Source: Candidatus Delongbacteria bacterium (GTDB taxonomy: Bacteria; CAIWAD01). Taken from it: 64,000 nucleotides of DNA. The position numbers and the translations under genes were made by a program. The stretch is taken from the NCBI GenBank assembly GCA_041675285.1, contig JBAYTZ010000007.1:1480-65479 (forward strand), read 5' to 3'. Under the pieces are notes generated by a model, which worked only from the letters and a program-made list of their open reading frames with translations, was not told the DNA's origin and made no database searches. Each line of letters opens with the position of its first letter. The stretch's first letter is position 1. Positions 7,695 through 29,790 of the stretch are shown here, one piece after another.

Positions 7695-8790
7695 GGACCC
7701 GGGCATCCGCTTCAATCTGGCGCCGGGACCCTCGCGCCTGCTGCCCCTGATGCCCCGGGCCGCCGCCAACTTCCTGGAGTCCGGCCTGGGCGGCCTGCAT
7801 CACCGTTCGCCCGAACTGGGCGCACTCACCGGGCGGCTGGTGGAGCGCCTGCGGGCCTGCCTGGAGCTGCCGGCGGACTTTCAGGTCTGGTTCGTCTCCT
7901 CGGCCAGCTACGCCATGGAACTATGCGTGCGCAATCTGGTGCGCGATTCGTGCTCGGCCCTGGTGGCCGGCGCTTTCGGCGGGCGCTTCGCCCAGGTGGC
8001 CGAGTTGACCGGCCGCCGGGTCTGCGTGTCACGGAGCGCGCCCGGCACGGCCCCCACCGCCCCGCCGGAGGATCCGGCCTGGCGGTCCGGCGAGGCCTGG
8101 CTGCTCTGCCACAACGAGACGGCGACGGGCACGGCCCTGCCGCTGGAGCGCTGGCCCGCGCCGCGGCCCGGCGATCCCCTGCGGCTGGTGGACTGCGTCT
8201 CCAGCGCGGGCGCCCAGCGCCTGCCCTGGCAGCAAGGCGACCTGTGGTTCTTCAGCGTGCAGAAGGCCTTCGGCTGTCCGCCGGGCTTGGCCGTAATCCT
8301 GGCGGGCCCGCGGGCCGTGGCCCGGGCGCGCGAGCTGGAGGCGGAGGGCCGGGACACGGGGGCCTGGTTCTCCTTCGCGCGGCTGGCGGACAACGCCGCC
8401 CGGCGGCAATCCCCCTGCACGCCCAACAGCCTGGGCCTGCACCTCCTGTCCGAGGCCGCGGCCTGGCTGACGGAGCGCGGCCCCGCGGCGGTGGAGGCCC
8501 ACGTGCGCGACCTGCGCGCGGCCTGTCTGGACTGGCTGGAATCCCATCCCGCGCTGGTGGCGGCGGTGACGGATCCCGCGGCGCGCTCGCTGACGGTCAC
8601 GGCCCTGCGGCGGCGGGACGGCGGCGAGCTGACGACCCTGCAGCAGGCGTTGCGCGCGCAGGGCATCGTGGTGGGTGGCGGCTACGGCGACTGGCGCGGG
8701 ACCTCGCTGCGGCTGGCGCACTTCCCCGTCCACGAACGGGAGGAGCTGGCCACGGTCTGCGCGGCCATCGACCGGATCGTGCTCGCTTGA
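7681..8790 (+). CDS. Class V aminotransferase (serine-pyruvate / phosphoserine aminotransferase-like), PLP-dependent
   Basis: SVQKAFGCPPGLAV motif containing the PLP-lysine; size of 369 aa; overall class V pattern. Confidence 0.6.
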   Translation: MTPPEDPGIRFNLAPGPSRLLPLMPRAAANFLESGLGGLHHRSPELGALTGRLVERLRACLELPADFQVWFVSSASYAMELCVRNLVRDSCSALVAGAFGGRFAQVAELTGRRVCVSRSAPGTAPTAPPEDPAWRSGEAWLLCHNETATGTALPLERWPAPRPGDPLRLVDCVSSAGAQRLPWQQGDLWFFSVQKAFGCPPGLAVILAGPRAVARARELEAEGRDTGAWFSFARLADNAARRQSPCTPNSLGLHLLSEAAAWLTERGPAAVEAHVRDLRAACLDWLESHPALVAAVTDPAARSLTVTALRRRDGGELTTLQQALRAQGIVVGGGYGDWRGTSLRLAHFPVHEREELATVCAAIDRIVLA

Positions 8791-16928: not shown

Positions 16929-18148
16929 CGACGACGGCGCTCCCCCCCACGCGCGTCCTCTGGCTGGAGGACCGGCCCGCAGAGATCCGGGATCCGCTGC
17001 CCGAGGCCGTGGAGGCCGTGGTGGTGGGCGCCGGCCTGGCCGGACTTTCCGTGGCCCTGCACCTGCGGCGGCTGGGGGTGGAGGTCTGCGTGCTGGAGCG
17101 CGAGCATCCCGCGGCGGGGGCCTCCGGCCGCAACGCCGGCCATCTGCTGGCCGGGACCTCCGAGTACTACAACCGCGCCGTGGATTTGCTGGGGCGCGAG
17201 AAGGCCCGGGAGATCTGGGCCTTCACCGTGGCCAACCAGCAGGACTTCTCCGCCCACCTGCTCTCGCTGCCCGTGGAGACGGGCTACCAGCGCTGCGGCT
17301 ACCTGGCCTGCGCCACCACCGAGCACGAGCGTCGCGAGCTGGAGCAGACCGCCCAGTTGCTGCGCGAGGACGGGTTCGAGAGCGAGTTCTGGAGCGCCGA
17401 GCAGCTGGTGAAGCGCACGGGGCGCAGTCCCTTCCTGGGGGCGCGCTACTCGCCGGACGACGGACAGGTGCAGCCCGCCCGCGTGGTCTGGGCCCTGGCG
17501 GACGAGTTGCGCGCCGCCGGCGGCCGCTTGGCCTCGCGCACGGAGGTTCTGGCGGTGGAGAGCGACCCCGCGGGCTGGCGCCTGGAGCTGCGCACGCCGG
17601 AGGGCGCCCGCCGGCTGCGCGCCACGGTGGTGATCCATTGCACCAACGCCTGGACCTTCCAGCTGCTGCCCGCCTTCACGGACCTGATCAGCCCCGTGCG
17701 CGGCCAGATGCTGGCCACGGAGCGCCTGCACAAGGTGATTCCCATGGCCATGGCCGCCAACTACGGCTACGAGTACTGGCGCCAGGCCCCCAACGGCGAA
17801 GTGGTGCTGGGCGGCTGGCGCTGGTCCCAGCAGGAGCAGGAGATCGGCGTCCTGACGGAGACGCTCAACCCGGAGATCCACGCCGGGCTCTCCACCTTCC
17901 TGCAAGGCCACTTCCCCAAGCTCGAGGGCGCGGCCATCCGCTGCGCCTGGACCGGCGTGATGGGCTTCTCCCGGGACGGCCTGCCCTGGGTGGGCGAGGT
18001 GCCGGGTCGCCAGGGCCAGTACCTGGCGGCGGGCTTCACGGGGCACGGTTTCGGCCTGGCGTGGCGCTGCGCCCAGGGGCTGGCAGAAGAAATCGTCCAG
18101 GGCCGCCTCTGCGAAAATCTGCGCTGGTTCCGGCCGCGACGGGCCTGA
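16925..18148 (+). CDS. FAD-dependent oxidoreductase (DAO / glycine-oxidase-like)
   Basis: Dinucleotide-binding motif VVVGAGLAGLSVALHL...LE; ATGA overlap with the upstream gene. Confidence 0.7.
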   Translation: MTTTALPPTRVLWLEDRPAEIRDPLPEAVEAVVVGAGLAGLSVALHLRRLGVEVCVLEREHPAAGASGRNAGHLLAGTSEYYNRAVDLLGREKAREIWAFTVANQQDFSAHLLSLPVETGYQRCGYLACATTEHERRELEQTAQLLREDGFESEFWSAEQLVKRTGRSPFLGARYSPDDGQVQPARVVWALADELRAAGGRLASRTEVLAVESDPAGWRLELRTPEGARRLRATVVIHCTNAWTFQLLPAFTDLISPVRGQMLATERLHKVIPMAMAANYGYEYWRQAPNGEVVLGGWRWSQQEQEIGVLTETLNPEIHAGLSTFLQGHFPKLEGAAIRCAWTGVMGFSRDGLPWVGEVPGRQGQYLAAGFTGHGFGLAWRCAQGLAEEIVQGRLCENLRWFRPRRA

Positions 18149-18150
18149 GT

Positions 18151-18404
18151 CCACCTTTCTGCTGGCGCCGGTATGGTGGCCCAACGCCTGTCATCCCCCG
18201 GCTTGACCGGGGGATCCCAACCCTGATCAGTCATCCAGGCGGGGGCTGGGGTGCCATGTTTTCCACCTTTCTGCTAGCGCCGGTATGGTGGCCCAACGCC
18301 TGTCATCCCCCGGCTTGACCGGGGGATCCCAACCCTGATCAGTCATCCTGGCGGGGGCTGGGGCGCCATGTTTTCCACCTTTCTGCTTGCGCCAGAAAGG
18401 TGGA
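18151..18404. repeat. Tandem direct repeat of a 112-bp unit (two full copies ~97% identical plus a truncated third copy), ending in an 11-bp-stem hairpin
   Basis: Unit starts CCACCTTTCTGCT(G/A)GCGCCGGTATGGTGG at 18151, 18263 and 18375. Each full unit contains a perfect 9-bp-stem hairpin ATCCCCCGG-cttga-CCGGGGGAT (e.g. 18193..18215). The array ends with TCCACCTTTCT-gcttgcgcc-AGAAAGGTGGA (18374..18404). Confidence 0.8.
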
Positions 18405-18818
18405 GCCAAAGAGGCGCTTTTTCTCAGCGGCCAGAGTCAGGCCACCTCGCGGTGGCCTTCCGCTGGCCGGCGATTGGCCTTCCTGAAACCGTGTAGTTGG
18501 TTCCGCCTGACGGCGTCACCACCTGGTTCTGGTTCAGCCCTGTGGGCTTCACCTCACTCGATCAATGACTCCACCTGTCGCACGACTTCACTGTGCCTCT
18601 GTGACTCTGTGTTGAAGAGCCACACCGACCCCTCCAGCAACCACTTCGAGCCTTCGAACCTTCGTGTTCAAGGGCCTCACGGAATGGGCACCAAAACTCT
18701 CACGGCCGAGGAGAGCTGAGCGCCACAGATGAGCCGATCGCCACCCAAACTGAACGGCCTGGGGAGTTCCGGCTTTGGGGTGGCGCGCGATCCATATCAA
18801 CATAGAACGGGGTCGATT

Positions 18819-19056: not shown

Positions 19057-19752
19057 ATGAAGAAATTGCTGACCCTCGCACTGACGGGCGTCCTGGCCGC
19101 CGCCGCTCTGGCCGTCGAGTCTGAGCCCTCCAACACCGTCGGCTTCATCAGCCGTTCCACCACCGCCGGTTCCTACACGGCCTTCAGCGCTTGCCCCAAG
19201 GGCCTGGGCGTTGACATGCCGGCCGTCAGCGTCCTGGGCACCCAGGGCTTCAACGGCGATCAGATCCTGGCTTATGACGGTGGCTGGCTGACCTACAGCT
19301 ACACGCCGGACAACACCTGGGGCGGCCTGACCCTGGACTACAACGGCATGTACATCTATCGCAACAACCACGGCGCCGCCGCCACCCTGGTCGTCGCGGG
19401 CGACGTCATCCCCGAAGGCACCAACGTGACCTTGGCCACCTTCCCGGGTGCCAATACCTACGTCGGCTTCGGCAACCCCCTGCCCATGGACGTGGATCTG
19501 GACACCAACGACCTGACGCTGGTCGCCGACGGCTTCAACACCGGCGACATCGTCCTGGAGTACAACGGTGGCTGGCTGACCTACGTGTACAGCGGCAGCT
19601 TCGGCTATGACCTGACCGCCGGTCGCTCCTACGTGATGCGCACGGGCGCCGCCTTCACCTGGGACTACACCATCCCCACGGGTGCTGTGGCCACCACGAG
19701 CACGGCTCCGATGAAGGTCGCCAAGGCTGCCACGTCGGTCGAGCTGAACTAA
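19057..19752 (+). CDS. Secreted protein with internal two-fold duplication; unknown function
   Basis: GAGGAG RBS. Signal peptide MKKLLTLALTGVLAAAALA. Two homologous halves (ILAYDGGWLTYSYT... and IVLEYNGGWLTYVYS...). No T9SS CTD. Confidence 0.55.
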   Translation: MKKLLTLALTGVLAAAALAVESEPSNTVGFISRSTTAGSYTAFSACPKGLGVDMPAVSVLGTQGFNGDQILAYDGGWLTYSYTPDNTWGGLTLDYNGMYIYRNNHGAAATLVVAGDVIPEGTNVTLATFPGANTYVGFGNPLPMDVDLDTNDLTLVADGFNTGDIVLEYNGGWLTYVYSGSFGYDLTAGRSYVMRTGAAFTWDYTIPTGAVATTSTAPMKVAKAATSVELN

Positions 19753-19798: not shown

Positions 19799-20839
19799 AT
19801 GAAGAAGATTCTGCTCGGAACTCTGGCCGTTGTCAGCCTGGCTTCCATCAGCTCGGCCAACCTGCAGCTCAATTTCCCCTCCACGAAGCTCGGCGTCGGC
19901 CCCGAGAACGTGGTGGGCAACGTGTCCGCTGACGCCATGTTGACGGTGGACGGCACGGATGTCGCCCGCGTCCCGGCCAACGTGATCTTCGAAGGCGGCA
20001 GCCCGCTGGCCGTCTCCCTGGTGTGGGCCTACGATTCGGATCCCGCCTACAACCTCGAGTTCCTGATCGGCGAGGAAGGTTCCTTCGTGGCCATCCGCGA
20101 CGTCAAGGTGTACCTGACCAGCTCCTGCGATCCGCCGCAGGTCCTGACCTATTCCCGTGGCGTGAGCAACCAGTATGCCTACAACCTGGGCACTCCCTTC
20201 CCGGGCACGCTGCCGACCTCCATGCCGGTCTTCGCCACCTTGGAGCCCTGCGGTCCGGCTTGCGAGCCTGGCTTCACCTTTGCGCCGGCTGGCTATGATT
20301 TCGGAACGGTGATCACCAATGTTCCGCAGACCACGACCTTCGAAATCTGCAACACGGCTGTTGGTGACTGCCCGCCCATCGGTGGCACGGTGACCGAGAA
20401 TTGCGCCGTCTTCTCCGTTGAGCCCCTGAACTACGTGCTGGCCCCGGGCGAGTGCCAGATCTTCACCGTGACCTTCACGGGCGTCCGTGGTGGACCGACG
20501 GTCTGTGACATCATCACCGACCATGGCGTGTTCACCTGCACTGTGGACGATCAGGTGGCCGGCACCGAGACCCCCGCGGTCTTCGCGCTGGGCGAAGCCT
20601 ATCCGAACCCCTTCAACCCCACCACCACCCTGAGCTACTCGGTGCCCGAGAATCAGGAAGCCGTGCTGAGCGTGTACAACACGAACGGCCAGCTGGTGAA
20701 GACCCTGGTGAACGGCATGGTCGAGCGTGGCGAGCACAAGGTTGTGTTCGACGCCAGCGACCTGGCCTCCGGTGTGTACGTCTACACGCTGAAGACCGCT
20801 TCCCAGAGCGCCATGCACAAGATGGTCCTGGTCAAGTAA
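19799..20839 (+). CDS. Secreted T9SS-CTD protein, paralog A: novel conserved N-domain, then a Cys-rich ASH/choice-of-anchor-like Ig domain, then a Por_Secre_tail C-terminal domain
   Basis: AAGGAG RBS. Signal peptide. N-domain ANLQLNFPSTKLGVGPENVVGNVSADAMLTVDG...SLVWAYDSD. Central YDFGTV...CN..G.CP...ENCAVFSVEP...GECQ motif. C-terminus NPFNPTTTLSYSVPENQEAVLSVYNTNGQLVKTLVNG...GVYVYTLKT matches the type-A T9SS CTD. Confidence 0.7.
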   Translation: MKKILLGTLAVVSLASISSANLQLNFPSTKLGVGPENVVGNVSADAMLTVDGTDVARVPANVIFEGGSPLAVSLVWAYDSDPAYNLEFLIGEEGSFVAIRDVKVYLTSSCDPPQVLTYSRGVSNQYAYNLGTPFPGTLPTSMPVFATLEPCGPACEPGFTFAPAGYDFGTVITNVPQTTTFEICNTAVGDCPPIGGTVTENCAVFSVEPLNYVLAPGECQIFTVTFTGVRGGPTVCDIITDHGVFTCTVDDQVAGTETPAVFALGEAYPNPFNPTTTLSYSVPENQEAVLSVYNTNGQLVKTLVNGMVERGEHKVVFDASDLASGVYVYTLKTASQSAMHKMVLVK

Positions 20840-20864
20840 GCTGCTTCACAGCCTGCTGATCCTG

Positions 20865-20896
20865 CGCCCCCCGCTTCGGCGGGGGGCGCTTTTTGT
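20865..20896 (+). terminator. Rho-independent terminator
   Basis: GCGCCCCCCG-cttcg-GCGGGGGGCGC followed by TTTTTG. Confidence 0.8.
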
Positions 20897-21043
20897 AGTG
20901 TGGTCGTAGTTGTGTTGGACGGAGCATTGACGGCACGCCGCTTCAGTTATCGAATGATTGGCCTTGTAATTGCTGCTGTTTCCGTAACCCAAGAGGGCTT
21001 TGCCCCAAGTGGATAAGCTCAACCTGTAGCAAGGAGACAAGAG

Positions 21044-22066
21044 ATGAAGCATGTGCTCGCAGCCTTGGCGCTATGCAGTTTGGCCACGACCAGTTCGGCC
21101 AACCTGCAGCTCAGTTTCCCCTCCACGAAGCTCGGCGTCGGCCCCGAGAACGTGGTGGGCAACGTGTCCGCCGACGCCATGTTGACGGTGGACGGCACGG
21201 ACGTCGCCCGCATCCCGGCCAACGTGATTTTCGAAGGCGGCAGCCCGCTGGCCGTCTCCCTGGTGTGGGCCTACGATTCGGACGCCACCTACAACCTCGA
21301 GTTCCTGATCGGCGAAGAGGGTGCCTTCGTGGCCATCCGCGACGTCAAAGTGTACCTGACCTGCCCGCACTACACAAATTATGTGTTCACGTATGCTCGT
21401 GGCGCAAATAATCAGTACGCTTACAACCTTGGAACTCCCTTCCCAGGCACCCTGCCGACCTCCATGCCGGTCTTCGCCACCCTCATGTGCGATCCGTTCC
21501 CGATCTGTGGCGTTGATGTCACCAGCCTTGACTTTGGCACCGTGTACAATCCTGCCCCCGTGCAGCAGAGCTTCCAGGTTTGCAACGTCGGTGGCGACAT
21601 CCTGGTGGGCACCGTGACCGAGAGCTGCCCGGCCTTCAGTATCGTAGCCGGCGCTGACTTTTTGCTGGCCGCTGGCGAGTGCCAGAGCGTCCTGGTCGAG
21701 TTCGTCGGCGACCACTCCGGCCCGATCGTCTGCGACCTGCTGCTGGGCGACTGCACCGTGACCTGCATCGTGAACGACATCGTGGCCGGCACCGAGACCC
21801 CCGCGGTCTTCGCGCTGTCCGAAGCCTATCCGAACCCCTTCAACCCCACCACGACCCTGAGCTACTCGGTTCCCGAGAATCAGGAAGCCGTGCTGAGCGT
21901 GTACAACACGAACGGCCAGCTGGTGAAGACCCTGGTGAACGGCATGGTCGAGCGTGGCGAGCACAAGGTTGTGTTCGACGCCAGCGACCTGGCATCCGGT
22001 GTGTACGTCTACACGCTGAAGACCGCTTCCCAGAGCGCCATGCACAAGATGGTCCTGGTCAAGTAA
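21044..22066 (+). CDS. Secreted T9SS-CTD protein, paralog B; mosaic relative to paralog A
   Basis: AAGGAGA RBS. The N-domain is ~95% nt-identical to paralog A (21097-21360 vs 19853-20116). The C-terminal ~280 nt plus terminator are identical to A. The central ~150 codons are divergent. Confidence 0.7.
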   Translation: MKHVLAALALCSLATTSSANLQLSFPSTKLGVGPENVVGNVSADAMLTVDGTDVARIPANVIFEGGSPLAVSLVWAYDSDATYNLEFLIGEEGAFVAIRDVKVYLTCPHYTNYVFTYARGANNQYAYNLGTPFPGTLPTSMPVFATLMCDPFPICGVDVTSLDFGTVYNPAPVQQSFQVCNVGGDILVGTVTESCPAFSIVAGADFLLAAGECQSVLVEFVGDHSGPIVCDLLLGDCTVTCIVNDIVAGTETPAVFALSEAYPNPFNPTTTLSYSVPENQEAVLSVYNTNGQLVKTLVNGMVERGEHKVVFDASDLASGVYVYTLKTASQSAMHKMVLVK

Positions 22067-22090
22067 GCTGCTTCACAGCCTGCTGATCCT

Positions 22091-22122
22091 GCGCCCCCCG
22101 CTTTGGCGGGGGGCGCTTTTTT
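22091..22122 (+). terminator. Rho-independent terminator (near-identical copy of the one at 20865)
   Basis: GCGCCCCCCG-ctttg-GCGGGGGGCGC followed by TTTTTTG. Confidence 0.8.
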
Positions 22123-22346
22123 GTGGCTGCTCGAGTTTGTCCGCCCCCGTTGCCCGTTGTCAACGGTCAGCTGTCCACTTGATCTGACAGAGTCGGGGCG
22201 CATTTCCTGACCCGCAGGATTCGGCTTGTGACCGGCACTTCCTGGTCCTATGTTGCGCCCGCCTACCTGGAAGTCCATCACCGTTAGACGCGCTGGCCAC
22301 TGGGCATGAGTCGATCCTATGTTCGTGTCGCCGGCAGGGGGGGACC

Positions 22347-23366
22347 ATGAAGAGTTGGAGTCTGTGGCTTGTGCTGCTGCTTGGGCTTGGTCTGGACAGC
22401 CGGGCCAACGTGCAGTTCAGCTTCCCGGTCGCGCGGCTGGGAACGGGACCCTACAACACCGTCCAAAACCTGAGTGCGGACGCCATTCTCGTGGTGGATG
22501 GCGTGGAAATCGCCGGGCGCCTGCCTGCCAACCAGATTTTCCAAGGGGGCAGTCCGGAGCAGGTGTCCTTGGTTTGGGCCTATGACAGCGACTTCGCGGA
22601 GTGGCTCGAGGGTGACGGTGCGCTGGTGCAACTGCGCAACATCCGCCTGACGCTCACCTGCCCGGACGGCAGCAACTCCCTCAGCCAGACCTGCGGGAGC
22701 AGTCCCATCCTCTACGAGCTAGGGTCCCATACCTGGTTTACGCAGTCCTGTCCGCCGCAAACCTTTCCAACCCTGGTATGTGGCTGCACGGGGCAATTGG
22801 CGCTTGCACCCTCCACGCTGGACTTTGGACGCGTCGGGCAGGCCGACCCGGTCAGCATGTCCTTCTGGATCTGCAATCCGGGACCCGTGGCCTGTCCACC
22901 GGTGGCGGGAAGCCTGGTGGCGGAATGCCCGGCCTTTTCCGTTTTCCCGGAAGAGTATCTGGTGCCAGGAGATTCCTGTCAGGAGGTGGTAGTCACCTTT
23001 GTCGGCAGCCATGCGGGTCCAACGAGTTGTGAAATCGTGACAACGCACGGTGTGGTGACCTGCGTCGTGGACGACGAAGTGGCTGCGACGGAAGGGCCCG
23101 CCGGGTTTGGGTTGGGCGAGGCCGTTCCCAATCCCTTCAACCCCACCACGACCCTGAGCTACTCGGTACCGGAGACCGAAGTCGTCACGCTGAAGGTGTA
23201 CAACACGCAGGGCCAGTTGGTGAGGACCCTGGTGAACGGCCTGGTGGAGCGAGGCGAGCACAAGGTGGTGTTCGACGCCGCTGAGCTGGCCTCCGGCGTC
23301 TACGTAAGCACGCTGACCTCGGCGACCCGGAGCGCCGCCGCGCGCAAACTGCTCTTAGTCAAGTAG
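22347..23366 (+). CDS. Secreted T9SS-CTD protein, paralog C (more diverged)
   Basis: Signal peptide. N-domain ANVQFSFPVARLGTGPYNTVQNLSADAILVVDG...VSLVWAYDSD. Central LDFGRV...CNPGPVACPP...ECPAFSVFP...GDSCQ domain. CTD NPFNPTTTLSYSVPETEVVTLKVYNTQGQLVRTLVNG. Confidence 0.65.
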   Translation: MKSWSLWLVLLLGLGLDSRANVQFSFPVARLGTGPYNTVQNLSADAILVVDGVEIAGRLPANQIFQGGSPEQVSLVWAYDSDFAEWLEGDGALVQLRNIRLTLTCPDGSNSLSQTCGSSPILYELGSHTWFTQSCPPQTFPTLVCGCTGQLALAPSTLDFGRVGQADPVSMSFWICNPGPVACPPVAGSLVAECPAFSVFPEEYLVPGDSCQEVVVTFVGSHAGPTSCEIVTTHGVVTCVVDDEVAATEGPAGFGLGEAVPNPFNPTTTLSYSVPETEVVTLKVYNTQGQLVRTLVNGLVERGEHKVVFDAAELASGVYVSTLTSATRSAAARKLLLVK

Positions 23367-23394
23367 GCGCCATCCCAACGCTGTCGAAACCGAA

Positions 23395-23419
23395 GCGCCC
23401 TCCCTCGGGGGGCGTTTTC
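23395..23419 (+). terminator. Rho-independent terminator
   Basis: GCGCCCTCCC-tc-GGGGGGCG followed by TTTTCG. Confidence 0.6.
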
Positions 23420-23609
23420 GCTCTGGCCGGATGACGCCGGCGTCTGCGCAGGCCCCCTGACCGCGGTGGACGGCGGGTTGTGCGGGTGCGGGTGCAGGGA
23501 TTCCGCGACCGCGCCTGACGGGTAGAGCGGGGCGACTTGGCTGGTGCGGCTGCGGCGAGAGTGCTTCCTTGCCGGCGCAGGGATTTCACGATGAGCGGGA
23601 GGAACGGCG

Positions 23610-24350
23610 ATGCGCATTCGACTGGGATGGCTGGGCCTGGGGCTGTGGGCGGCCAGCGCGCAGGCCAATCTGCAATTGAATTTCCCGCTGGAGCGCCTGG
23701 GCACGGGGGACTACAACGGCGTCGAGTTCCTGTCGGCGGACGCCCTGCTGGAGGTGGACGGCGTCGCCGTGGTCCGGCTGGCCGCCAATCAGCGGGTCGT
23801 GGGCGGCAGCCCGGTGATGGTGGGGCTGATCTGGGCCTATGATTCCGATCCCGCCCACCAGCTGGAAGAGCTGCTGAACCAGGGCGCCAGCGTGGTGCTG
23901 CGCGACGTCCAGCTGCGCCTGAGCTGCCCGGCCGGCAGCCCCGTCCTGAGCTGGTCCCGGGGCGTCAACTTCGCCTACCCCTACCAGCTCGGCACGCCCT
24001 TTCCCGTCAACCTGCCCGCCGCCATGCCTGTCTTCGACACCCTGGATTGTGACACGGCCCTGGAGGAGGGCGCCGCGCCCCAGGCCCTGAGCTTCGCCCT
24101 GGGGGAGGCCCAGCCCAACCCCTTCAACCCGACGACCAGTCTCAGTTACACGCTGCCCGCCAGCCAGGATGTCACTCTGCGAGTCTACAACCCCGGCGGC
24201 CAACTGGTGCGCACGCTGGCCCAGGGCCGGATGCCGCGCGGTGTCCACAACGTTCTGTTCGACGCCTCCCGGCTGGCCTCGGGCCTCTACTTGTGCCGGC
24301 TGGAATCCGACGGCCGGGCGGTCACGCGCAAGATCCTCTATCTGAAGTAG
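23610..24350 (+). CDS. Secreted T9SS-CTD protein, paralog D (short form lacking the central Ig-like domain)
   Basis: N-domain ANLQLNFPLERLGTGDYNGVEFLSADALLEVDG...GLIWAYDSD and the shared YQLGTPFPVNLPAAMPVFDTL motif, directly followed by the CTD NPFNPTTSLSYTLPASQDVTLRVYNPGGQLVRTL. Confidence 0.6.
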   Translation: MRIRLGWLGLGLWAASAQANLQLNFPLERLGTGDYNGVEFLSADALLEVDGVAVVRLAANQRVVGGSPVMVGLIWAYDSDPAHQLEELLNQGASVVLRDVQLRLSCPAGSPVLSWSRGVNFAYPYQLGTPFPVNLPAAMPVFDTLDCDTALEEGAAPQALSFALGEAQPNPFNPTTSLSYTLPASQDVTLRVYNPGGQLVRTLAQGRMPRGVHNVLFDASRLASGLYLCRLESDGRAVTRKILYLK

Positions 24351-24416
24351 GCTGGCGCGTCCCCCGGCGGGGCCGGTTCGCAAAGCCGCGCCAGTCCGTC
24401 CTAACCGCACAAAAAG

Positions 24417-24452
24417 AACCGGCCCCCTGCTTGCGCAGGGGGCCGGTTTGCA
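24417..24452. terminator. Bidirectional rho-independent terminator between convergent genes
   Basis: CAAAAAGAA-CCGGCCCCCTG-cttgcgc-AGGGGGCCGG-TTTG. A-tract upstream and T-tract downstream allow termination for both the + gene ending at 24350 and the - gene ending at 24473. Confidence 0.7.
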
Positions 24453-24472: not shown

Positions 24473-26116
24473 TTACTTCTCGGCGGTCACCACGTAGAAG
24501 GCGCGGCCGGTGGCCGGCAGGGTCACGGTGGTGTTGGTGGTGGTGGTCTCCAGCGTGGCCGGGGCGGGATAGCCGTCGATCTGGCTGTAGACGCGATAGC
24601 CCGTGGCCAGCGGCACGGCCGTCCAGCTCAGGGTCACCTGGCCGCTGGAGTAGACGATCTCCAGGTTGGGCGGGCAGAACCAGTCGTCCCAGGCGGTGGG
24701 CGGCAGGGTCATGTTGGGCGTGGCATCATCCAACGTGAAGGGCCGGTTGGTGATGTTGTCCTCCCAGTTCCAGGTGCTGCCGTCGGTGGTGAAGGCCGTC
24801 TTGTACTCCACGTCGAAGACGGAGCCGGCGGGGAAGGTCACGTCCGCTTCCCAGACGCCGTCCAGGTCGGCATCCGTCATGGGCATGCTGCCGGCCGTCC
24901 AGTCCAGCGGGGCCACGTTGCCCTGCAGGGAGACGCCGCTCACGGTGCCGATGCAGTTCATGTCCTGGCTGAAGTGCGCCGTGATGGGCACCGTGGTGCC
25001 CGCGGGCGGGACGTAGTTGCTGAAGAAGGCGTTGGGCAGGGCGGTGAAGCCGGGGGCCATGCAGAGCCGGCGATTGACGCCGTCCTCATAGGTCCAGGCC
25101 GTGCCGTCCGCACTCTTGAGGAATTTGTACTCCAGCGTGTTCAAGGTGCCGGCCGGGAAGATCACCATGCCCGAGAACAGGCCGGGATGGCCCACGTCGC
25201 TCAAGGCCAGGGTCGTATCCCAGTTGAGCGGGGCGCGCGTGCCGCGGATGCCCACGCCGCCGGCGTAGCTGGCGGGATCCTGGTGCTGCAGGTCCACGGC
25301 GAAGATCACCATGGCGTTGGCGCCCAGGGGAGCCTCGACGCAGGGGCACTCGGCTTCGTCGTTCCAGTAGCCGCTGTATTCGCCGGTGGTGGCGCCGGAG
25401 GGCACGGTGAACTCGCGGTTGGCGAAGGGACCGCCGGGCAGGCTTTCCCAGTCGGTGCCGTTGCGGAACTTGAACTCGATGGTCAGGGCGGAACCCGCCG
25501 GCCAGACGATGTCGGTGGCGTAGACGCGCGGGCTGACTTGGGTCATGGCCTGGTAGACCCAGCCGTTGAAGGAGCCGGAGATGCCGGGGCCCTGGCCGTT
25601 GTTGGTGACACAGTGGAAGTCGCCCACCACGTGCAGGGTGAAGTCCTCGGTGGTGGCGTTCTCCACCAGGTAGAAGGCCGGGGAGGCGGCGTTGAAGGTC
25701 GCCTCGGGGCTGCCCGGACGCGCCGTAAAGGCCGCCGCGCCGTCCACGTCGGCGAACTCGCAGTAGAAGAACACGCTGTCGCCGCTCAGGGCCGCCATGG
25801 GGATGTCGGCGAAATGCTCGTCCAGGGGATCGTAGCAGTCGCCGATGTTCAGCTGCATGGGCACGCTGGAGTAGGTGGTTTCGCCCTGGGCGCGGTAGAA
25901 CAGGGTCTTGGTCACGTCGGCGCATTCGGTGCTGTCACACGCACCCGAGCAGCCGGTTTTCAGGTAGCGGGCGTAGACCCGGACGTCGGCGCTGTTGGGC
26001 ACCGTGTCGCCGGACTCCTGCCACTGCAAGTAGCTCTGCTCCACCAGGGCCGCGGCGGGCTGGGCCAGCAGGGCCAGCAGGGCGGCGACGGCGGAAAGTC
26101 GGGGAAAGAGTTTCAT
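24473..26116 (-). CDS. Secreted protein with three CBM20-like starch-binding modules and a C-terminal FN3-like domain
   Basis: AAGAGG RBS. Signal peptide MKLFPRLSAVAALLALLAQPAAA. Three modules ending in the CBM20 hallmark (W...EFKF/EYKF...W..E...NR.FT.P), e.g. IEFKFRNGTDWESLPGGPFANREFTVP. C-terminal VTLSWTAVPLATGYRVYSQ...FYVVTAEK. Confidence 0.6.
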   Translation of the reverse strand: MKLFPRLSAVAALLALLAQPAAALVEQSYLQWQESGDTVPNSADVRVYARYLKTGCSGACDSTECADVTKTLFYRAQGETTYSSVPMQLNIGDCYDPLDEHFADIPMAALSGDSVFFYCEFADVDGAAAFTARPGSPEATFNAASPAFYLVENATTEDFTLHVVGDFHCVTNNGQGPGISGSFNGWVYQAMTQVSPRVYATDIVWPAGSALTIEFKFRNGTDWESLPGGPFANREFTVPSGATTGEYSGYWNDEAECPCVEAPLGANAMVIFAVDLQHQDPASYAGGVGIRGTRAPLNWDTTLALSDVGHPGLFSGMVIFPAGTLNTLEYKFLKSADGTAWTYEDGVNRRLCMAPGFTALPNAFFSNYVPPAGTTVPITAHFSQDMNCIGTVSGVSLQGNVAPLDWTAGSMPMTDADLDGVWEADVTFPAGSVFDVEYKTAFTTDGSTWNWEDNITNRPFTLDDATPNMTLPPTAWDDWFCPPNLEIVYSSGQVTLSWTAVPLATGYRVYSQIDGYPAPATLETTTTNTTVTLPATGRAFYVVTAEK

Positions 26117-29100
26117 CGAAGACCTCTTGAATTGGGTTGCGATTGGGTGTTGCCTGCCCGCACGACGAAGAAGCCGCTCGTGCCGGAGGGCGGGAGGATG
26201 AATTCGCTGGCGGGCGTCTCCGCCAGGGGGGTGGGCCCGGGCTCGTCCCAGGGCGCCGCGAGAGCGTAGATCCGATAGCTGAGGGCGCCGGCCACGGGCT
26301 CCCAGTCCAGCTTGAGCGTGCCGTCGGCGAGCAGCGTGACGCTGACCAGCGGCGCGGCCGGGGCTGTGGGCACGGGATTGTTGGGCGCCACGCCCATCCG
26401 GGGCATGGGTCCGTCCATGGGCGGCTGGGTGAAGGTGAACCAATTGCCGTAGGTGACGTTGGTCCCCACCGGATTGGCCTGGGGCCAGGCCAGCACGGTG
26501 ACCTGGCTGGCTTCCTGGGTGAAGCCCGCGCAGAGCGCCAGCTGGGTCGGGTTGCCTAGCTCGCTCCAGGGAATGCGCAGCTCGGTCAGCAGATTTCCGC
26601 TCCAGCCCTCGTAGCTGCTGCCCGAGTGGCTGCCGAAGGCCATGTAGGTCCAGGCCGCCCCCGTCCAGTGGTTGATCTGCATGCTGTTGCCGCCGCCTTC
26701 CACAGCGACGGAGTACTCGGGCCGGCGCGCGCTGCTGAAGCCGATCCGGCTCCAGGAGTCGCGCGGGGCGCCGCTGCCGGCCACGCCGTCCGTGTCCAGG
26801 TGGACGAAGAAATCGCCCGTGGCCAGGTTGCGGCCCCGGAAGGCCAGGTAGAGCGCCTGGGCGTCCCAGGTGAGGAAGAGGCTGTCCGCCCGATTCTCCA
26901 GCAGTTCCGTGGCGCGGATGAAGTCTTGCGCGCCATCCACCAGGGGCGTGTGCGGCGTGAGCCCGTTGGGCACGGCGAAGAGCGCCGTGTCGTGGGCCGG
27001 GTCCACGAGGTTGCCCGCCAGATCGGTCACGCCCGTGGCCGTGATGCTGCCGCCCACCCCGCCGGAGAGGCCGGCCAGCCGCAGGTGCACGCGCCGGGTC
27101 CAGGCCTGACGCTCCGCCGAGAGGATGCTGACGCCGCCGGGGAAGCCGCTCAGGCTCCAGTGGGCCGGGTTCTCCGCGCTGGCCTCGTCCACGGCTTCGC
27201 TGAAGTCCAGCACGGCCAGGTCGGGCGCCAGCCAGGGGGCGCTGTCCGCCAGCTCGGGACCCTTCACGTCCAGGTCTGTCAGCGCCAGGGACACCAGTTC
27301 CGGCACCTGACCCTGCGCGTCGGGAGCCGTGCTGCGCCCGGCGTAGAACAGGAAGCGGAAGCGGCCGTCGCCCTTGATCTCATCTCCCTTGACCAGCGTG
27401 CCCTGGAAATCACCGGCGTGCTGCGCGCCGCCGTTGCCCAGCACCAGGGCCGCCGTCCAGCCCGTGGTGGTGTTGCGCTGGCCCAGCCAGTCGCTCTGCG
27501 GCCAGGCGGCGCCGGGATCCCAGAGCCGCGTGGTGGAGCCGTTCCAGAGCAGATCCAGGTAGTCCGGCGTGAAACCGCTCTTGACGAGGGTCTCGCTGGG
27601 CGTGTCGTAGTCGCAGGTGATGAAAGGTTCGCCGGCGCGCAGGCTGAAGGTCTTCACCAGGCCCGAGGCGTGGCTGAGACGCACGCGCGCGAAGCCCACG
27701 CCGACGGAATCCACGCTCAGGGCGTAGGGATCGTTCTCCAGCAGCGGACTGACATCGCTGAACGCGGCCACGTGGTTGTTGGAGGAGCCGTCGTTGAAGT
27801 CGCCCTCGGTGTCCACCCAGTAGGCGCTGCAGCTGCCCACCAGGCTGGCGGCGTCCGTGGAATCCTTGGCGAAGATCCAGGGCGCGCGGCCGCCGGCGGG
27901 CTCGAAGACGGCCAGCACGCGGTCGCTGTGCAGGACCAGTTCCTCCACGCCGTCGGCGTCCACGTCCGCCAGCTGGGCGCCCGTGCCCTGCCAGGCCTGC
28001 CCGCCCCACCAGCGGCCCGCCTCGGCGTAGACGCGGGCGTTCTTGATATGGGAGGAATAGCGGTGGATCCAGCCGCTGATCTCGCCGCCGTCGTGCCAGC
28101 CCGTCTCGTAGACGTTGGTCATCAGCACGTACCAGGCCAGGGTGGAGAGCTTGTTGTCCGGGTTGCCCATCAGCCAGCTCCAGGCGTCGTTCCAGGCCTG
28201 GCCGTAGTTCCACTGCGGCACGTGCTGGTCGCTGTGCGCGGGCGCGCCGGCGAAGTGCCCGTACCACGAATTGGCCGTGCCGGGACTGAGCCAGTCGCTG
28301 CCGTAGCCGCCGCGTCCACCCAGCAGGCCGTAGGTGCCGTTCTGCAGGTTGATGGCCCCGCCGCCGAAACCGCCCAGGGCGGCGTCGAGCTTCATGGACT
28401 CCACGGAGCCGCCGCTGGCGGCGATCTGCTGCACGAGCCAGATCATGTTGTTGAGCGCGCTGGGGAACTGCCCGGCGAAGCCCGCCACCTCCGCGGCCAC
28501 CTCCCAGTCCGTGCCGTAGACCAGCAGCTCGTCCGGCGAGGTGCCCAGGATCATGTTCCAGGCCGCGCCGGCGTCGTGGTGGCAGTTGCCCGTGAACGAG
28601 CCGTTGATGGGGATGACGTTCAAGTCACCCTGGCCGGGCACGGGGATGGTGTAGATGTGGCGGTCGTTGGCCCAGTTGTTCTGGTAGTCGCAGTGCTCCT
28701 CCTGGTCCAGCAGGACGCCGTAGACGCCGTGGGGCAGCCAGTCGTCGCCGATCCAGTCCAGCACGTGGGCGGCGGTGTTCCAGGGGTTGCCGTCGTTGTC
28801 CTCGGGGCTGACCCAGACGCGCTCGGGCACCCAGGCCACGTGGGGCGTGTAGCCGTAGCGCCAGGCGGTCATCTGGCTGTGGGTGTGGACGGCCCAGTCG
28901 TTCATGCTGTCCTGGACGAAGGGCATGATATGCTGGGCGTAGGCGCTGGTGAGCATGCCGGCCCAGCCCTCGGTCACGCCGCGGGCCAGCCAGTCGTTCC
29001 AGCCCTCCACCGTGCCGTCCGGGTAGTACCACTGGGCCGCGCTCTGCAGCGGGCCGCTGACGTGGAAGTTGCCGGGCACGTCGAGCACGTCGTGCAGGCC

Positions 29101-29790
29101 CAGCAGCTCATCGAAACCGCGGTGCTCGCTGCCCGTGTCGAGGTACTCGCTCCAGTGCTGTTCGTGGGAATCGGCCTCGTCGCCCCAGAGCACGTCGGTC
29201 CAGGTGAGGCCCTGGTTGCCGTGGTGGACGAAAGCCACGTGATGATCGCTGCGCTCGCCCTCCCGGGCGGATTCCAGTTCGTCGGCCAGCGGCGCGCCGG
29301 CTCCGGCACGGGTGGCCAGGCTCAGTCCGGTGCCGGATTCCAGCAGGCGGCTCCAGAGGGTCCACTCCGCCGGCAGCCAGAGCTCCAGCACGGCCGCGCC
29401 GCGCTCCCGGCGAATCTCCGGGCGCACGCTGGCGAGGGTTTTCCAGATGCCAGCCGTCGACATCTGCCAGCTCAGACGCTCCCGTCCCTCCAGCACCAGC
29501 CGCTGACCGTCCGGGGCTTTCACTTCCAACCGGCCGTCTCCCCAGGGTGCCAGGCTGCCCAGCCGCAGCACGCCACGGCCCTCCCGCACGCCGGCGCAGG
29601 CCAGGCTGAGGTCGAGTGCCGGGGACATGCCGCCCTCGGCGGGATCCAGGGCCAGCAGCCGCAGTCCGGGGGTGAATCCCGCGGGCGGAGAGGCGGGGGC
29701 GGCCGGGGCACCGAGGGGCGCCAGGCAGAGTCCCGCCAGGGCCAGGGCCGGGGCGGTGAGCAGAGACAACTGGAATGGGCGCAGGAGCAT
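26113..29790 (-). CDS. Large secreted GH57-like alpha-glucan-active glycoside hydrolase with C-terminal FN3-like domain
   Basis: Signal peptide. N-terminal catalytic region with GH57-like conserved blocks (FVHHGNQ, NFHVSGPLQ, AWVPERVW, LLDQEEH). ATGA overlap with the downstream CBM20 gene. C-terminus LKLDWEPVAGALSYRIYAL...FFVVRAGN. Confidence 0.5.
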   Translation of the reverse strand: MLLRPFQLSLLTAPALALAGLCLAPLGAPAAPASPPAGFTPGLRLLALDPAEGGMSPALDLSLACAGVREGRGVLRLGSLAPWGDGRLEVKAPDGQRLVLEGRERLSWQMSTAGIWKTLASVRPEIRRERGAAVLELWLPAEWTLWSRLLESGTGLSLATRAGAGAPLADELESAREGERSDHHVAFVHHGNQGLTWTDVLWGDEADSHEQHWSEYLDTGSEHRGFDELLGLHDVLDVPGNFHVSGPLQSAAQWYYPDGTVEGWNDWLARGVTEGWAGMLTSAYAQHIMPFVQDSMNDWAVHTHSQMTAWRYGYTPHVAWVPERVWVSPEDNDGNPWNTAAHVLDWIGDDWLPHGVYGVLLDQEEHCDYQNNWANDRHIYTIPVPGQGDLNVIPINGSFTGNCHHDAGAAWNMILGTSPDELLVYGTDWEVAAEVAGFAGQFPSALNNMIWLVQQIAASGGSVESMKLDAALGGFGGGAINLQNGTYGLLGGRGGYGSDWLSPGTANSWYGHFAGAPAHSDQHVPQWNYGQAWNDAWSWLMGNPDNKLSTLAWYVLMTNVYETGWHDGGEISGWIHRYSSHIKNARVYAEAGRWWGGQAWQGTGAQLADVDADGVEELVLHSDRVLAVFEPAGGRAPWIFAKDSTDAASLVGSCSAYWVDTEGDFNDGSSNNHVAAFSDVSPLLENDPYALSVDSVGVGFARVRLSHASGLVKTFSLRAGEPFITCDYDTPSETLVKSGFTPDYLDLLWNGSTTRLWDPGAAWPQSDWLGQRNTTTGWTAALVLGNGGAQHAGDFQGTLVKGDEIKGDGRFRFLFYAGRSTAPDAQGQVPELVSLALTDLDVKGPELADSAPWLAPDLAVLDFSEAVDEASAENPAHWSLSGFPGGVSILSAERQAWTRRVHLRLAGLSGGVGGSITATGVTDLAGNLVDPAHDTALFAVPNGLTPHTPLVDGAQDFIRATELLENRADSLFLTWDAQALYLAFRGRNLATGDFFVHLDTDGVAGSGAPRDSWSRIGFSSARRPEYSVAVEGGGNSMQINHWTGAAWTYMAFGSHSGSSYEGWSGNLLTELRIPWSELGNPTQLALCAGFTQEASQVTVLAWPQANPVGTNVTYGNWFTFTQPPMDGPMPRMGVAPNNPVPTAPAAPLVSVTLLADGTLKLDWEPVAGALSYRIYALAAPWDEPGPTPLAETPASEFILPPSGTSGFFVVRAGNTQSQPNSRGLR

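Follow-up and report, generated by a model that had tools for sequence, protein, structure and literature searches.

A tandem array of predicted type IX cargo genes in Candidatus Delongbacteria, with a mosaic pair that points to gene conversion between paralogs

Four tandem genes in a 64-kb stretch of Candidatus Delongbacteria DNA (referred to here as the window) encode small proteins with a type IX secretion system (T9SS) sorting domain, and two of them, copies A and B, are mosaics of recently homogenized and long-diverged segments. We favor the explanation that the region is a Delongbacteria locus carrying an array of T9SS cargo, that this cargo displays a binding module, and that A and B have undergone gene conversion between paralogs. 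As a whole, this explanation has a probability of about 0.6 in our estimate. The features are collected in Table 1.

Table 1. Features of the array and its surroundings (window positions)
Feature	Position	Strand	Details
231-aa secreted-protein gene, head of locus	19057-19752	+	Internally duplicated, with a signal peptide; lacks a CTD and Pfam matches
Copy A	19799-20839	+	346 aa; MFA7331128.1 at NCBI, "T9SS type A sorting domain-containing protein"
A, signal peptide	19799-19855	+	
A, N-domain	19856-20251	+	
Putative conversion tract 1	19856-20119	+	A aa 20-107; B 21098-21361; 95% nt identity, dS 0.11
Unconverted 16-codon patch	20120-20167	+	A aa 108-123; B 21362-21409; 50% nt, 31% aa identity
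A, A-type HYDIN-like Ig	20252-20554	+	
A, T9SS type A CTD	20555-20836	+	
Putative conversion tract 2 (CTD + terminator)	20555-20894	+	B 21782-22121; 98-99% nt identity, dS 0.04
A, intrinsic terminator	20864-20894	+	11-bp all-GC stem, UUCG loop, T5
Copy B	21044-22066	+	340 aa
B, own signal peptide	21044-21097	+	
B, N-domain	21098-21490	+	
B, B-type Ig	21491-21781	+	
B, CTD	21782-22063	+	
B, intrinsic terminator	22091-22122	+	Differs from A's by one loop base and an additional T
Copy C	22347-23366	+	339 aa
C, N-domain	22404-22781	+	
C, Ig	22782-23081	+	
C, CTD	23082-23363	+	
C, weaker terminator-like hairpin	23391-23420	+	Fold z = -0.96, indistinguishable from shuffled sequence
Copy D	23610-24350	+	246 aa, short form without Ig
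D, N-domain	23664-24050	+	Followed by 14-aa linker
D, CTD	24093-24347	+	
GC hairpin	24417-24448		15 bp, between D and convergent CBM20-like gene; T-run on minus strand
CBM20-like protein gene	24473-26119	minus	Convergent with D
1225-aa protein gene	26113-29790	minus	

The four reading frames begin where a preliminary description of this DNA had placed them, according to the ORF list with translations. Read by eye, all four copies have a Shine-Dalgarno-like site and, as described earlier, a signal-peptide-like N terminus that begins rich in K/R, continues into a hydrophobic core, and ends in small residues before a conserved mature ANLQ or ANVQ. The absence of an Ig module from copy D was also borne out. 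Because short-form orthologs of D exist (P0001/L007_243 and L010_247), the architecture of D is long established and did not arise by a recent deletion. Copy C was about 50% identical in amino acids to A and B along its whole length, without recent conversion, and had an ortholog (L005_316) with 66% identity. No additional copy of the family was found elsewhere within the window.

The C-terminal domains (CTDs) of all four copies exceeded the curated cutoffs of TIGR04183 (46.0, 45.6, 31.5, and 33.5 bits for A to D; cutoff, 23) and PF18962 (Por_Secre_tail; 42.7, 42.7, 30.3, and 29.4 bits; cutoff, 27), in agreement with the earlier assignment. The matches stopped 3 to 4 residues short of the C terminus (e.g., 268 to 343 of 346 in A). 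No gene for T9SS machinery (PorU/PorV/SprA/GldKLMN) was found among the ORFs scanned in the window, so that T9SS export and surface anchoring are predicted from the CTD. Export would begin with Sec, after which the T9SS would recognize the CTD of each product; by analogy with characterized type A cargo, the CTD would be removed and the mature protein attached to the surface or released. The mature proteins are without a catalytic domain. We found no paper naming Delongbacteria together with type IX secretion, and to our knowledge this phylum is known from metagenomes only.

The mosaic of A and B was resolved by measuring synonymous divergence per segment. The dS was 1.85 in the signal peptide, 0.11 and 0.59 in segments N1 and N2 of the N-terminal domain (N-domain), 1.07 in the Ig module, and 0.04 in the CTD, and synonymous sites were saturated in the 16-codon patch. 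This heterogeneity was far above chance, with Fisher P values from 1e-12 to 7e-6 across contrasts (CTD versus Ig, P = 1.4e-12; N1 versus Ig, P = 4.6e-9). The mosaic identity pattern reported in the preliminary description is real, and its dimensions needed correction. The identity of about 95% given for the N-domain holds for aa 20 to 107 and fails for the patch (Table 1) and for aa 124 to 148 (88% in nucleotides, 100% in amino acids). The last 282 coding nucleotides, said to be 100% identical, are 98% identical, with 5 differences, and the next 55 nt, terminator included, differ at one loop base. The center, described as about 450 nt of completely different sequence, is about 310 nt long, with 56% nucleotide and 42% amino acid identity, and is still a clearly homologous Ig domain. 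Tract 1 begins at the boundary between signal peptide and mature protein, and the patch maps to a loop connecting beta-strands in the modeled N-domain.

The mosaic ancestry of the pair was equally visible in module identity matrices, where each A/B module had a different nearest relative. The signal peptide of A was 100% identical to that of L005; the N-domains of A and B were 88% identical to each other and only 47 to 65% identical to the L005 and L007 orthologs; the A-type Ig was 71% identical to that of L007 and the B-type Ig 71% identical to that of L005, as against 45% between A and B. The segments were incongruent in their relationships to orthologs in other genomes, both in these matrices and when the flanks of L005, L006, and L007 were mapped. 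The A-type and B-type Ig modules are stable, old paralog lineages. Since these lineages are old and have 71%-identical orthologs, the flanks were homogenized by gene conversion and the core is no hypervariable cassette. Gene conversion or recombination, as proposed earlier, is supported by these relationships and by the segmental dS; its proposed confinement to a variable core is not, the cores being conserved and the flanks being the recently overwritten part. A hypervariable Ig core between strains was also rejected on the ortholog identity and on dN/dS (~0.43, with 0.25 to 0.41 in neighboring genes).

We propose an old paralog pair, A and B, in which the mature N-domain (aa 20 to 107) and the CTD with its terminator would have been recently overwritten from copy to copy. 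Separate A and B ancestry would have been retained in the signal peptide, in a single surface loop, and in the Ig spacer. Copy number would vary among relatives through unequal crossing-over. The single gene of L005, with an A-like upstream flank and a B-like downstream flank, has the pattern expected of an unequal-crossover hybrid, and the tandem pair of L013, with ~560 nt at 100% identity amid divergent signal peptides and flanks, is a second, unrelated instance of the mosaic in a second genus; both are short-read metagenome contigs, in which a chimeric join or repeat collapse is possible. L005 and L006 also have the tract 2 block, at 97.8% identity. In the CTD block, 0 of ~70 synonymous sites differed between the window and L005, against a baseline dS of 0.20 in neighboring genes, and within-genome conversion alone leaves this low divergence unexplained.

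A recent tandem duplication, after which the Ig core diversified rapidly under positive selection, would also produce near-identical flanks, the copies being young, and the sister lineage L005 does have one gene in place of A and B. However, positive selection is unable to raise dS, which was 1.07 in the core versus 0.04 to 0.11 in the flanks. Moreover, B has its own, highly diverged signal peptide and a unique upstream spacer of 150 nt, and both core types have orthologs in other genomes and a neighbor-like dN/dS. We regard this scenario as largely refuted and very improbable.

It is similarly hard to credit that an assembler joined strain variants across repeats and so created the A/B mosaic or the tandem order. 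The contig comes from a MEGAHIT-style metagenome assembly (record k141_1128737), and a related MAG contig breaks within the array. The longest exact A/B runs, however, are 122 and 109 nt, and because these are shorter than the assembler k of 141, A and B are not an assembly collapse. The A-B spacer, B signal peptide, and B Ig are unique sequence and necessarily real in some genome, and the adjacencies of the 231-aa gene with the A signal peptide and of the B Ig, B-C spacer, and C were independently present in L005, L006, and L007. Elsewhere, the L002 MAG contig begins inside the array and that of L014 ends in it; short-read assemblies fragment or collapse at arrays of this kind, so copy numbers in MAGs are unreliable.

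Tandem paralogs that are predicted to lie at the surface, are mosaic in their identity, and differ in copy number and composition among relatives might also suggest programmed antigenic or phase variation, with exchange between expressed and silent cassettes or expression switching through dedicated recombination. Yet all four copies are complete (start codon, Shine-Dalgarno site, signal peptide, CTD, and terminator or hairpin), and the cores are conserved between genomes. No silent or partial donor cassette was found beside the array, no inverted repeat between positions 18000 and 25000, and no recombinase, invertase, or reverse transcriptase among the scanned neighbor genes. We consider programmed variation highly unlikely; conversion is an ordinary evolutionary route for such families and not a programmed variation system.

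Expression of the copies was judged from terminators and spacers. Strong terminators of their own, attributed earlier to every copy, were found for A (fold energy, -35.7 kcal/mol; z = -4.6) and B; that of C is weak, and the hairpin behind D is common to the convergent gene and is followed on the plus strand by UUUG only. An AT-richer promoter region does not precede every copy, the C-D spacer being 72% GC. Because the 46-nt gap between the 231-aa gene and A contains no terminator, A is probably cotranscribed with that gene, and independent expression of each copy is only partly tenable.

The 231-aa gene lies directly upstream of T9SS-CTD genes in L005, L007, L012, L013, L015, and L016, and the 37 homolog clusters of its product are all annotated "hypothetical." The array is neighbored by genes for DAO, TonB_C, Omp85, the CBM20-like protein, and an unknown protein, and across Delongbacteria the conserved locus order is DAO, the 231-aa gene, and one to four small T9SS proteins. 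This synteny defines a conserved locus in Delongbacteria that has two parts, the gene for the 231-aa secreted protein and those for small T9SS cargo; the region would be its local version, with a birth-and-death array of type A cargo behind the 231-aa gene.

The N-domain is shared by all four copies, as described, at a length of ~130 aa instead of ~110 aa and with pairwise identities of 48 to 87%. It had no match in Pfam or NCBIfam even at an E value of ≤1, and its profile had no match in PDB below an E value of 0.12, so that its placement outside described families stood. Its rarity was plain: when 1.84e9 representatives were searched exhaustively with its profile, 11 matches were returned, about 8 of them genuine. 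Remote homology to domains at the same locus position elsewhere was detected (hhalign probability, 96.6%; E = 5.7e-10). The N-domain is modeled as a lineage-specific beta-sandwich and defines an uncatalogued domain family in Candidatus Delongbacteria.

A, B, and C each contain one Ig domain of the HYDIN/VesB/ASH clan. PF22544 (HYDIN/CFA65/VesB-like Ig; gathering cutoff, 25.5 bits) was passed by A (26.3 bits) and by homologous modules (L007_343, 31.1; P0010, 32.6; P0003, 240.8) and fell short in B (23.9) and C (18.0). The module had been likened to ASH and choice-of-anchor D domains: clan membership holds through PF22544 in A, but neither family does individually. Choice-of-anchor D (NF012200; cutoff, 45 bits) scored 19.4 bits in A and 13.6 in C without a match in B, and ASH (PF15780; cutoff, 27 bits) scored 12.8 bits in A. 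The ASH cutoff was reached only by the giant relative P0003 (79.1 bits), which matched PF22544 over 10 repeats and DUF1573 at 147.6 bits. Such giant paralogs, unlinked to the locus in relatives, carry the same N-domain on 8 to 13 Ig repeats, an arrangement suggestive of a stalk anchored at the surface with a binding module at its far end.

With the anchor at the C terminus, the N-domain forms the distal end. Most likely it serves in binding, as an adhesin or lectin-like module, and would be displayed at differing heights, on no (D) or one (A to C) HYDIN/ASH-type Ig spacer and on 8 to 13 in the giants. A narrower proposal, that it is a carbohydrate-binding module (CBM) recognizing alpha-glucan or a similar polysaccharide and that the array acts with the CBM20-like and 1225-aa proteins in polysaccharide capture, seems unlikely; the known modules closest to this proposal are the starch-binding CBM20, CBM41, CBM25, and CBM26, and the N-domain had no sequence match to a starch-binding CBM family (CBM20/41) in the same Pfam and PDB searches. 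We are about as doubtful that the N-domain and the 231-aa protein form a new Delongbacteria surface-display system with graded spacers, selectively kept conversion tracts, and a portable CTD-terminator handle. If it were true, a new, possibly glycan-binding module would be shown at 0, 1, or 8 to 13 Ig spacers from the cell; conversion would keep tip and sorting signal uniform and leave the spacers free to differ; and the CTD-terminator block, ~98% identical between genomes whose neighboring genes are ~88% identical, would be a recombination handle moving modules between copies and strains. On our preferred reading, neither variation nor secretion works here by a new mechanism, and protein function is predicted from sequence. 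The array offers a clean, quantifiable case of bacterial surface-protein genes evolving in concert.

Several known systems resemble the array in part. Interlocus gene conversion in general likewise gives segmental dS heterogeneity and module-specific phylogenies, but here the tract limits match functional boundaries (the signal-peptide cleavage region on the 5' side and a point just beyond the terminator on the 3' side), which recur in the second genus (L013). The T9SS type A cargo of the FCB group, such as the gingipains and HagA of Porphyromonas gingivalis, likewise has a signal peptide and a C-terminal sorting domain of ~80 aa; in rgpA, kgp, and hagA, too, the adhesin and C-terminal segments are nearly identical, for which recombination among the paralogs is held responsible. 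Unlike these, the array products are small (246 to 346 aa), tandem, from a different candidate phylum, and without a catalytic or "cleaved adhesin" domain, and their N-domain is unrelated to any described T9SS cargo domain. HYDIN, ASH, DUF1573, and choice-of-anchor D repeats form one clan with the modules of A to C and the repeats of the giants, but the module here is unusually Cys-rich (6 to 7 Cys). Stalked adhesins (Flavobacterium SprB/RemA and the RTX/Lap type) also combine a tip, an Ig-repeat stalk, and a cell anchor; in the window copies, by comparison, the repeats number 0 to 1, the tip is N-terminal, the anchor is a T9SS CTD, and adhesion is a prediction.

The four tandem genes A to D encode T9SS cargo of a new family, so far uncatalogued, at a locus conserved in Delongbacteria and shaped by ordinary concerted evolution. 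NCBI assigns the 211.7-kb metagenome contig that contains the window, ERZ27247358 k141_1128737, to 'Candidatus Delongbacteria bacterium', and the only name it gives to the four products is 'T9SS type A sorting domain-containing protein' (MFA7331128.1 to MFA7331131.1). ORF calling recovered all four genes at the starts named in a preliminary description (see the table), each, as read by eye, with an SD-like site and a signal-peptide-like N terminus; no further copies were found in the window. Protein alignment divided the products into four modules: a signal peptide, an N-domain of about 130 aa that begins at a conserved mature 'ANLQ/ANVQ' and finishes at a conserved Cys, a Cys-rich Ig-like module of about 100 aa (A to C; D has a 14-aa linker instead), and a C-terminal sorting domain (CTD) of about 85 to 94 aa. 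The CTD assignment held, with the curated thresholds of both TIGR04183 and PF18962 exceeded in 4 of 4 proteins. The middle module had been likened to ASH or choice-of-anchor D domains, but both models scored below cutoff in A to D, so the resemblance is at the clan level. In HMM searches, its family was HYDIN/CFA65/VesB-like Ig, for which the pass mark was 25.5 bits. A passed marginally (26.3 bits), B and C fell under the cutoff, and homologous modules in relatives passed clearly, with 240.8 bits over 10 repeats in P0003, a giant paralog. When the full-length model (pLDDT, 67.6) was searched for similar folds, all matches were of a generic Ig or CTD kind. The lower GC content of the array (0.62 versus about 0.70) was not taken as a sign of horizontal transfer because GC3 was still 0.78 to 0.90; the drop came mostly from codon positions 1 and 2.

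Coordinates of the array, its neighbors, and related features in the window and in related contigs (L numbers)
Feature	Location	Strand	Remark
231-aa gene	window 19057-19752	+	secreted protein
Copy A	window 19799-20839	+	ORF call
Copy B	window 21044-22066	+	ORF call
Copy C	window 22347-23366	+	ORF call
Copy D	window 23610-24350	+	ORF call
Secreted 548-aa protein	window 24473-26119	-	weak repeated CBM_20 matches; convergent with array
Secreted 1225-aa protein	window 26113-29790	-	no Pfam or PDB sequence match
CTD-plus-terminator block	window 20534-20894; L006 169-529; L005 gene 1
112-nt tandem unit	window 18150-18403
~227-nt segment	window 18513-18725; L002 217-443; L005 3482-3708; L006 1779-2005
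Frameshifted D ortholog	L002 541-1270; L005 3806-4054; L006 2103-2351
Tandem T9SS pair	L013 6740-7408 / 7786-8454		two 222-aa genes; contig CAIWAD01
~174-193-aa secreted protein	L007 3841-4401; L012 8679-9230; L013 9474-9998; L015 7607-8188; L016 8784-9335
Giant paralogs	L001 9944-12772; L004 9944-14245; P0003		943, 1433, and 1333 aa

A and B were then compared codon-aligned, per segment. Amino acid identity and dS were 56% and 1.85 for the signal peptide, 94% and 0.11 for N1 (aa 20 to 107, the N-domain ahead of a 16-codon patch), 31% and saturated for the patch (aa 108 to 123), 100% and 0.59 for N2 (aa 124 to 148, the N-domain after the patch), 42% and 1.07 for the Ig module (aa 149 to 252), and 99% and 0.04 for the CTD (aa 253 to 346). 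Over the 55 nt past the stop codon, which include an 11-bp GC terminator stem, A and B differed by a single base, and similarity then stopped. The contrast in synonymous differences gave a P value of 1.4e-12 for the CTD versus Ig, 4.6e-9 for N1 versus Ig, and 7e-6 for N1 versus the signal peptide. The mosaic pattern reported previously is thus real, with its numbers corrected. Since protein-level selection cannot yield a 25-fold range of dS, the segments are, judged by their synonymous distances, of different ages, and the intermediate dS of N2 suggests more than one conversion event. Assembly collapse of A and B was rejected because their exact shared runs, of 122 nt at most, are shorter than the assembler k-mer.

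The relatives used to tell which part had changed were L005 and L006, from a sister lineage with neighboring genes at a dS of 0.20 to 0.26 to the window; L007, which is farther away (dS, 0.40); and L003 and L010, carriers of further family members. According to module-by-module identities, the Ig module of A was 71% identical to that of the first gene of L007, and the Ig module of B was 71% identical to that of the first gene of L005, versus only 45% between A and B; both cores therefore predate the lineage split. The dN/dS of the Ig cores was about 0.43, which we take as no higher than that of the adjacent 231-aa gene (0.41). Between A and B, the N-domain was 88% identical, versus only 47 to 65% when compared with those on the orthologous cores, so the flanks, not the core, were recently homogenized. 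As read from these comparisons, A and B are two old paralogs that recently became alike in the mature N-domain and in the CTD and terminator. Gene conversion, as proposed in the preliminary description, is retained in this form, but the cassette exchange or antigenic variation of a variable core proposed with it is not, given the age of the cores, their orthologs, and their dN/dS. Hypermutation or exchange of the core was rejected in favor of gene conversion (concerted evolution) of the flanks. The locus and the neighbors scanned yielded no silent cassette, no inverted repeat, and no recombinase gene, and a programmed variation system is therefore unsupported. Recent copying of the A/B N-domain from any of the giant paralogs examined, all from relatives, was also rejected, since the dS to the L004 giant was about 0.6 despite 85% protein identity.

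The single first gene of L005 combines the exact signal peptide and upstream flank of A with the Ig module and downstream spacer of B, as would be expected if A and B had undergone unequal crossing-over inside the homogenized N-domain. Array copy number was 4 in the window, 3 in L005, and 3 in L007. In the sister lineage, the D ortholog is frameshifted after '...AYDSDPA', giving a called product of 82 aa and another of 166 aa; in L002, the ORF of the 82-aa fragment reaches 108 aa from an upstream start. Because the frameshift is found in three assemblies, this ortholog is probably a real pseudogene there. L007 has an N-domain-only gene of 163 aa, a decayed copy. With its varying copy number and decayed copies, the array evolves by birth and death.

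The CTD-plus-terminator block of A was 97.8% identical to that of L005/L006; adjacent genes were about 88% identical between the same genomes. The 94 codons of the block had 0 synonymous differences between the window and L005/L006, versus about 12 expected from the 231-aa gene (P of about 1e-6); set against a baseline dS of 0.20, 0 changes in about 70 synonymous sites gave a P of about 1e-5. Since within-genome conversion does not slow divergence between genomes, this conservation suggests either that the two populations recombined recently or that the nucleotide sequence itself is constrained.

The N-domain had been described as belonging to no recognized family, in agreement with our searches: there was no match in Pfam or NCBIfam even at an E value of ≤1, and its profile found nothing better than an E value of 0.12 among PDB sequences. 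A word-indexed homolog search with the N-domain of A gave zero matches, missing even A itself, and an HMM run exhaustively against 1.84 billion cluster representatives, used in its place, found 11 proteins. P0002, P0005, and P0011 were rejected as unrelated repeat proteins; the remaining hits were short N+CTD forms, N+Ig+CTD forms, and one giant of 1333 aa containing about 12 Ig repeats. The domain was carried by only 1 MAG among 185,579 species-representative genomes and by one JGI metagenome contig as well. In L012, L013, L015, and L016, the N-terminal regions of the T9SS-CTD proteins were barely detected by a single HMM, but when profiles were compared with each other they matched the N-domain over its whole length (hhalign probability, 96.6%; E = 5.7e-10; 114 columns). 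Because of this end-to-end match, the N-domain is not an orphan but the local version of a domain that evolves fast and is present at the locus in 5 of 5 additional Delongbacteria contigs examined.

The 231-aa protein is internally duplicated, carries a signal peptide but no CTD, and had no Pfam or PDB sequence match; its 37 homolog clusters are all annotated 'hypothetical.' On the long contigs L012, L013, and L015, its gene has the neighbors that it has in the window (nucleoside transporter, PNP, Omp85, TonB_C protein, and the oxidoreductase DAO), and different genes lie upstream in L016. On each of the four contigs, one or two genes for T9SS-CTD proteins of 222 to 349 aa come next, after 34 to 50 nt. 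The L013 tandem pair has divergent signal peptides and flanks around a stretch of about 560 nt, from the mature protein through the CTD and terminator, with 100% identity, a second, independent conversion of the A/B kind or, possibly, an assembly effect. In other Delongbacteria, a conserved secreted protein of about 174 to 193 aa ('...HIEVITVVGEVDPPF.DGDDRIQ...') follows the array, with a T9SS protein of about 720 aa next to it; both are missing from the window. Between the end of the DAO gene and the array, the window has a 112-nt tandem unit (about 2.3 copies, 97% identity) with a GC hairpin in each unit and no Rfam match. An intergenic segment of about 227 nt upstream of the 231-aa gene was found inverted, at 77.5% identity, in the sister lineage, where it separates the C-like gene from the D-like gene; a small element that is mobile or has been relocated, or a local rearrangement, could account for this. 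The DYSB01 MAG (L001 and L002) has a syntenic locus about 90% identical to the window in nucleotide sequence over 6.5 kb and is labeled 'Acetofilamentum sp.' (Bacteroidaceae), in conflict with the Delongbacteria label of the window, so one of the two labels is probably wrong. Our literature search found nothing specific on T9SS in Delongbacteria or on gene conversion between T9SS paralogs.

Each copy had been credited with its own strong terminator, an AT-richer upstream region, and independent expression. Strong intrinsic terminators follow A (-35.7 kcal/mol; z, -4.6) and B (-34.6 kcal/mol; z, -3.8), but the hairpin after C resembled shuffled sequence (z, -0.96), and the 15-bp hairpin past D has its T-run on the opposite strand. 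The A-B, B-C, and C-D spacers had GC contents of 56%, 63%, and 72%, which makes the A-B spacer the only one that is clearly AT-richer. The Bacteroidota-type promoter motif (TTTG..TAnnTTTG) was absent anywhere in the window, a scan for sigma-70-like promoters returned just 3 weak sites, and Rfam detected no known RNAs in the window. Independent expression is plausible for B, C, and D, whereas A, which starts 46 nt after the 231-aa gene with no terminator between them, is probably on one transcript with that gene.

The products of A to D consist of beta-sandwich modules followed by a T9SS type-A CTD, without a catalytic domain. In characterized systems, this CTD type directs outer-membrane export, PorU cleavage, and attachment to the cell surface. 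A dedicated model of the N-domain was weakly similar in fold to CBMs and adhesins, which, together with the CBM20-like 548-aa neighbor, would be compatible with a glycan ligand without being evidence of one; this neighbor is missing in the distant relatives L012, L013, L015, and L016. Both the 548-aa and the 1225-aa proteins, encoded convergently to the array, end in an Fn3-like region, not a CTD. In L002 and L010, their genes are likewise syntenic with the array, but this does not extend to more distant relatives. The unconverted 16-codon patch forms a loop in the N-domain model, and, speculatively, it might tune specificity. In the giant paralogs (L001, L004, and P0003), the N-domain lies at the opposite end from the C-terminal anchor with 8 to 13 Ig repeats between them, and an additional domain of about 150 aa precedes the CTD. 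Their lengths vary with the number of Ig repeats (about 8 to 13), counts that may reflect assembly collapse. From the modules and the layout of the giants, we infer that the N-domain of A to D would likewise be a distal binding module. The giant paralogs have the layout of a stalked adhesin, with the distal N-domain as the putative binding module.
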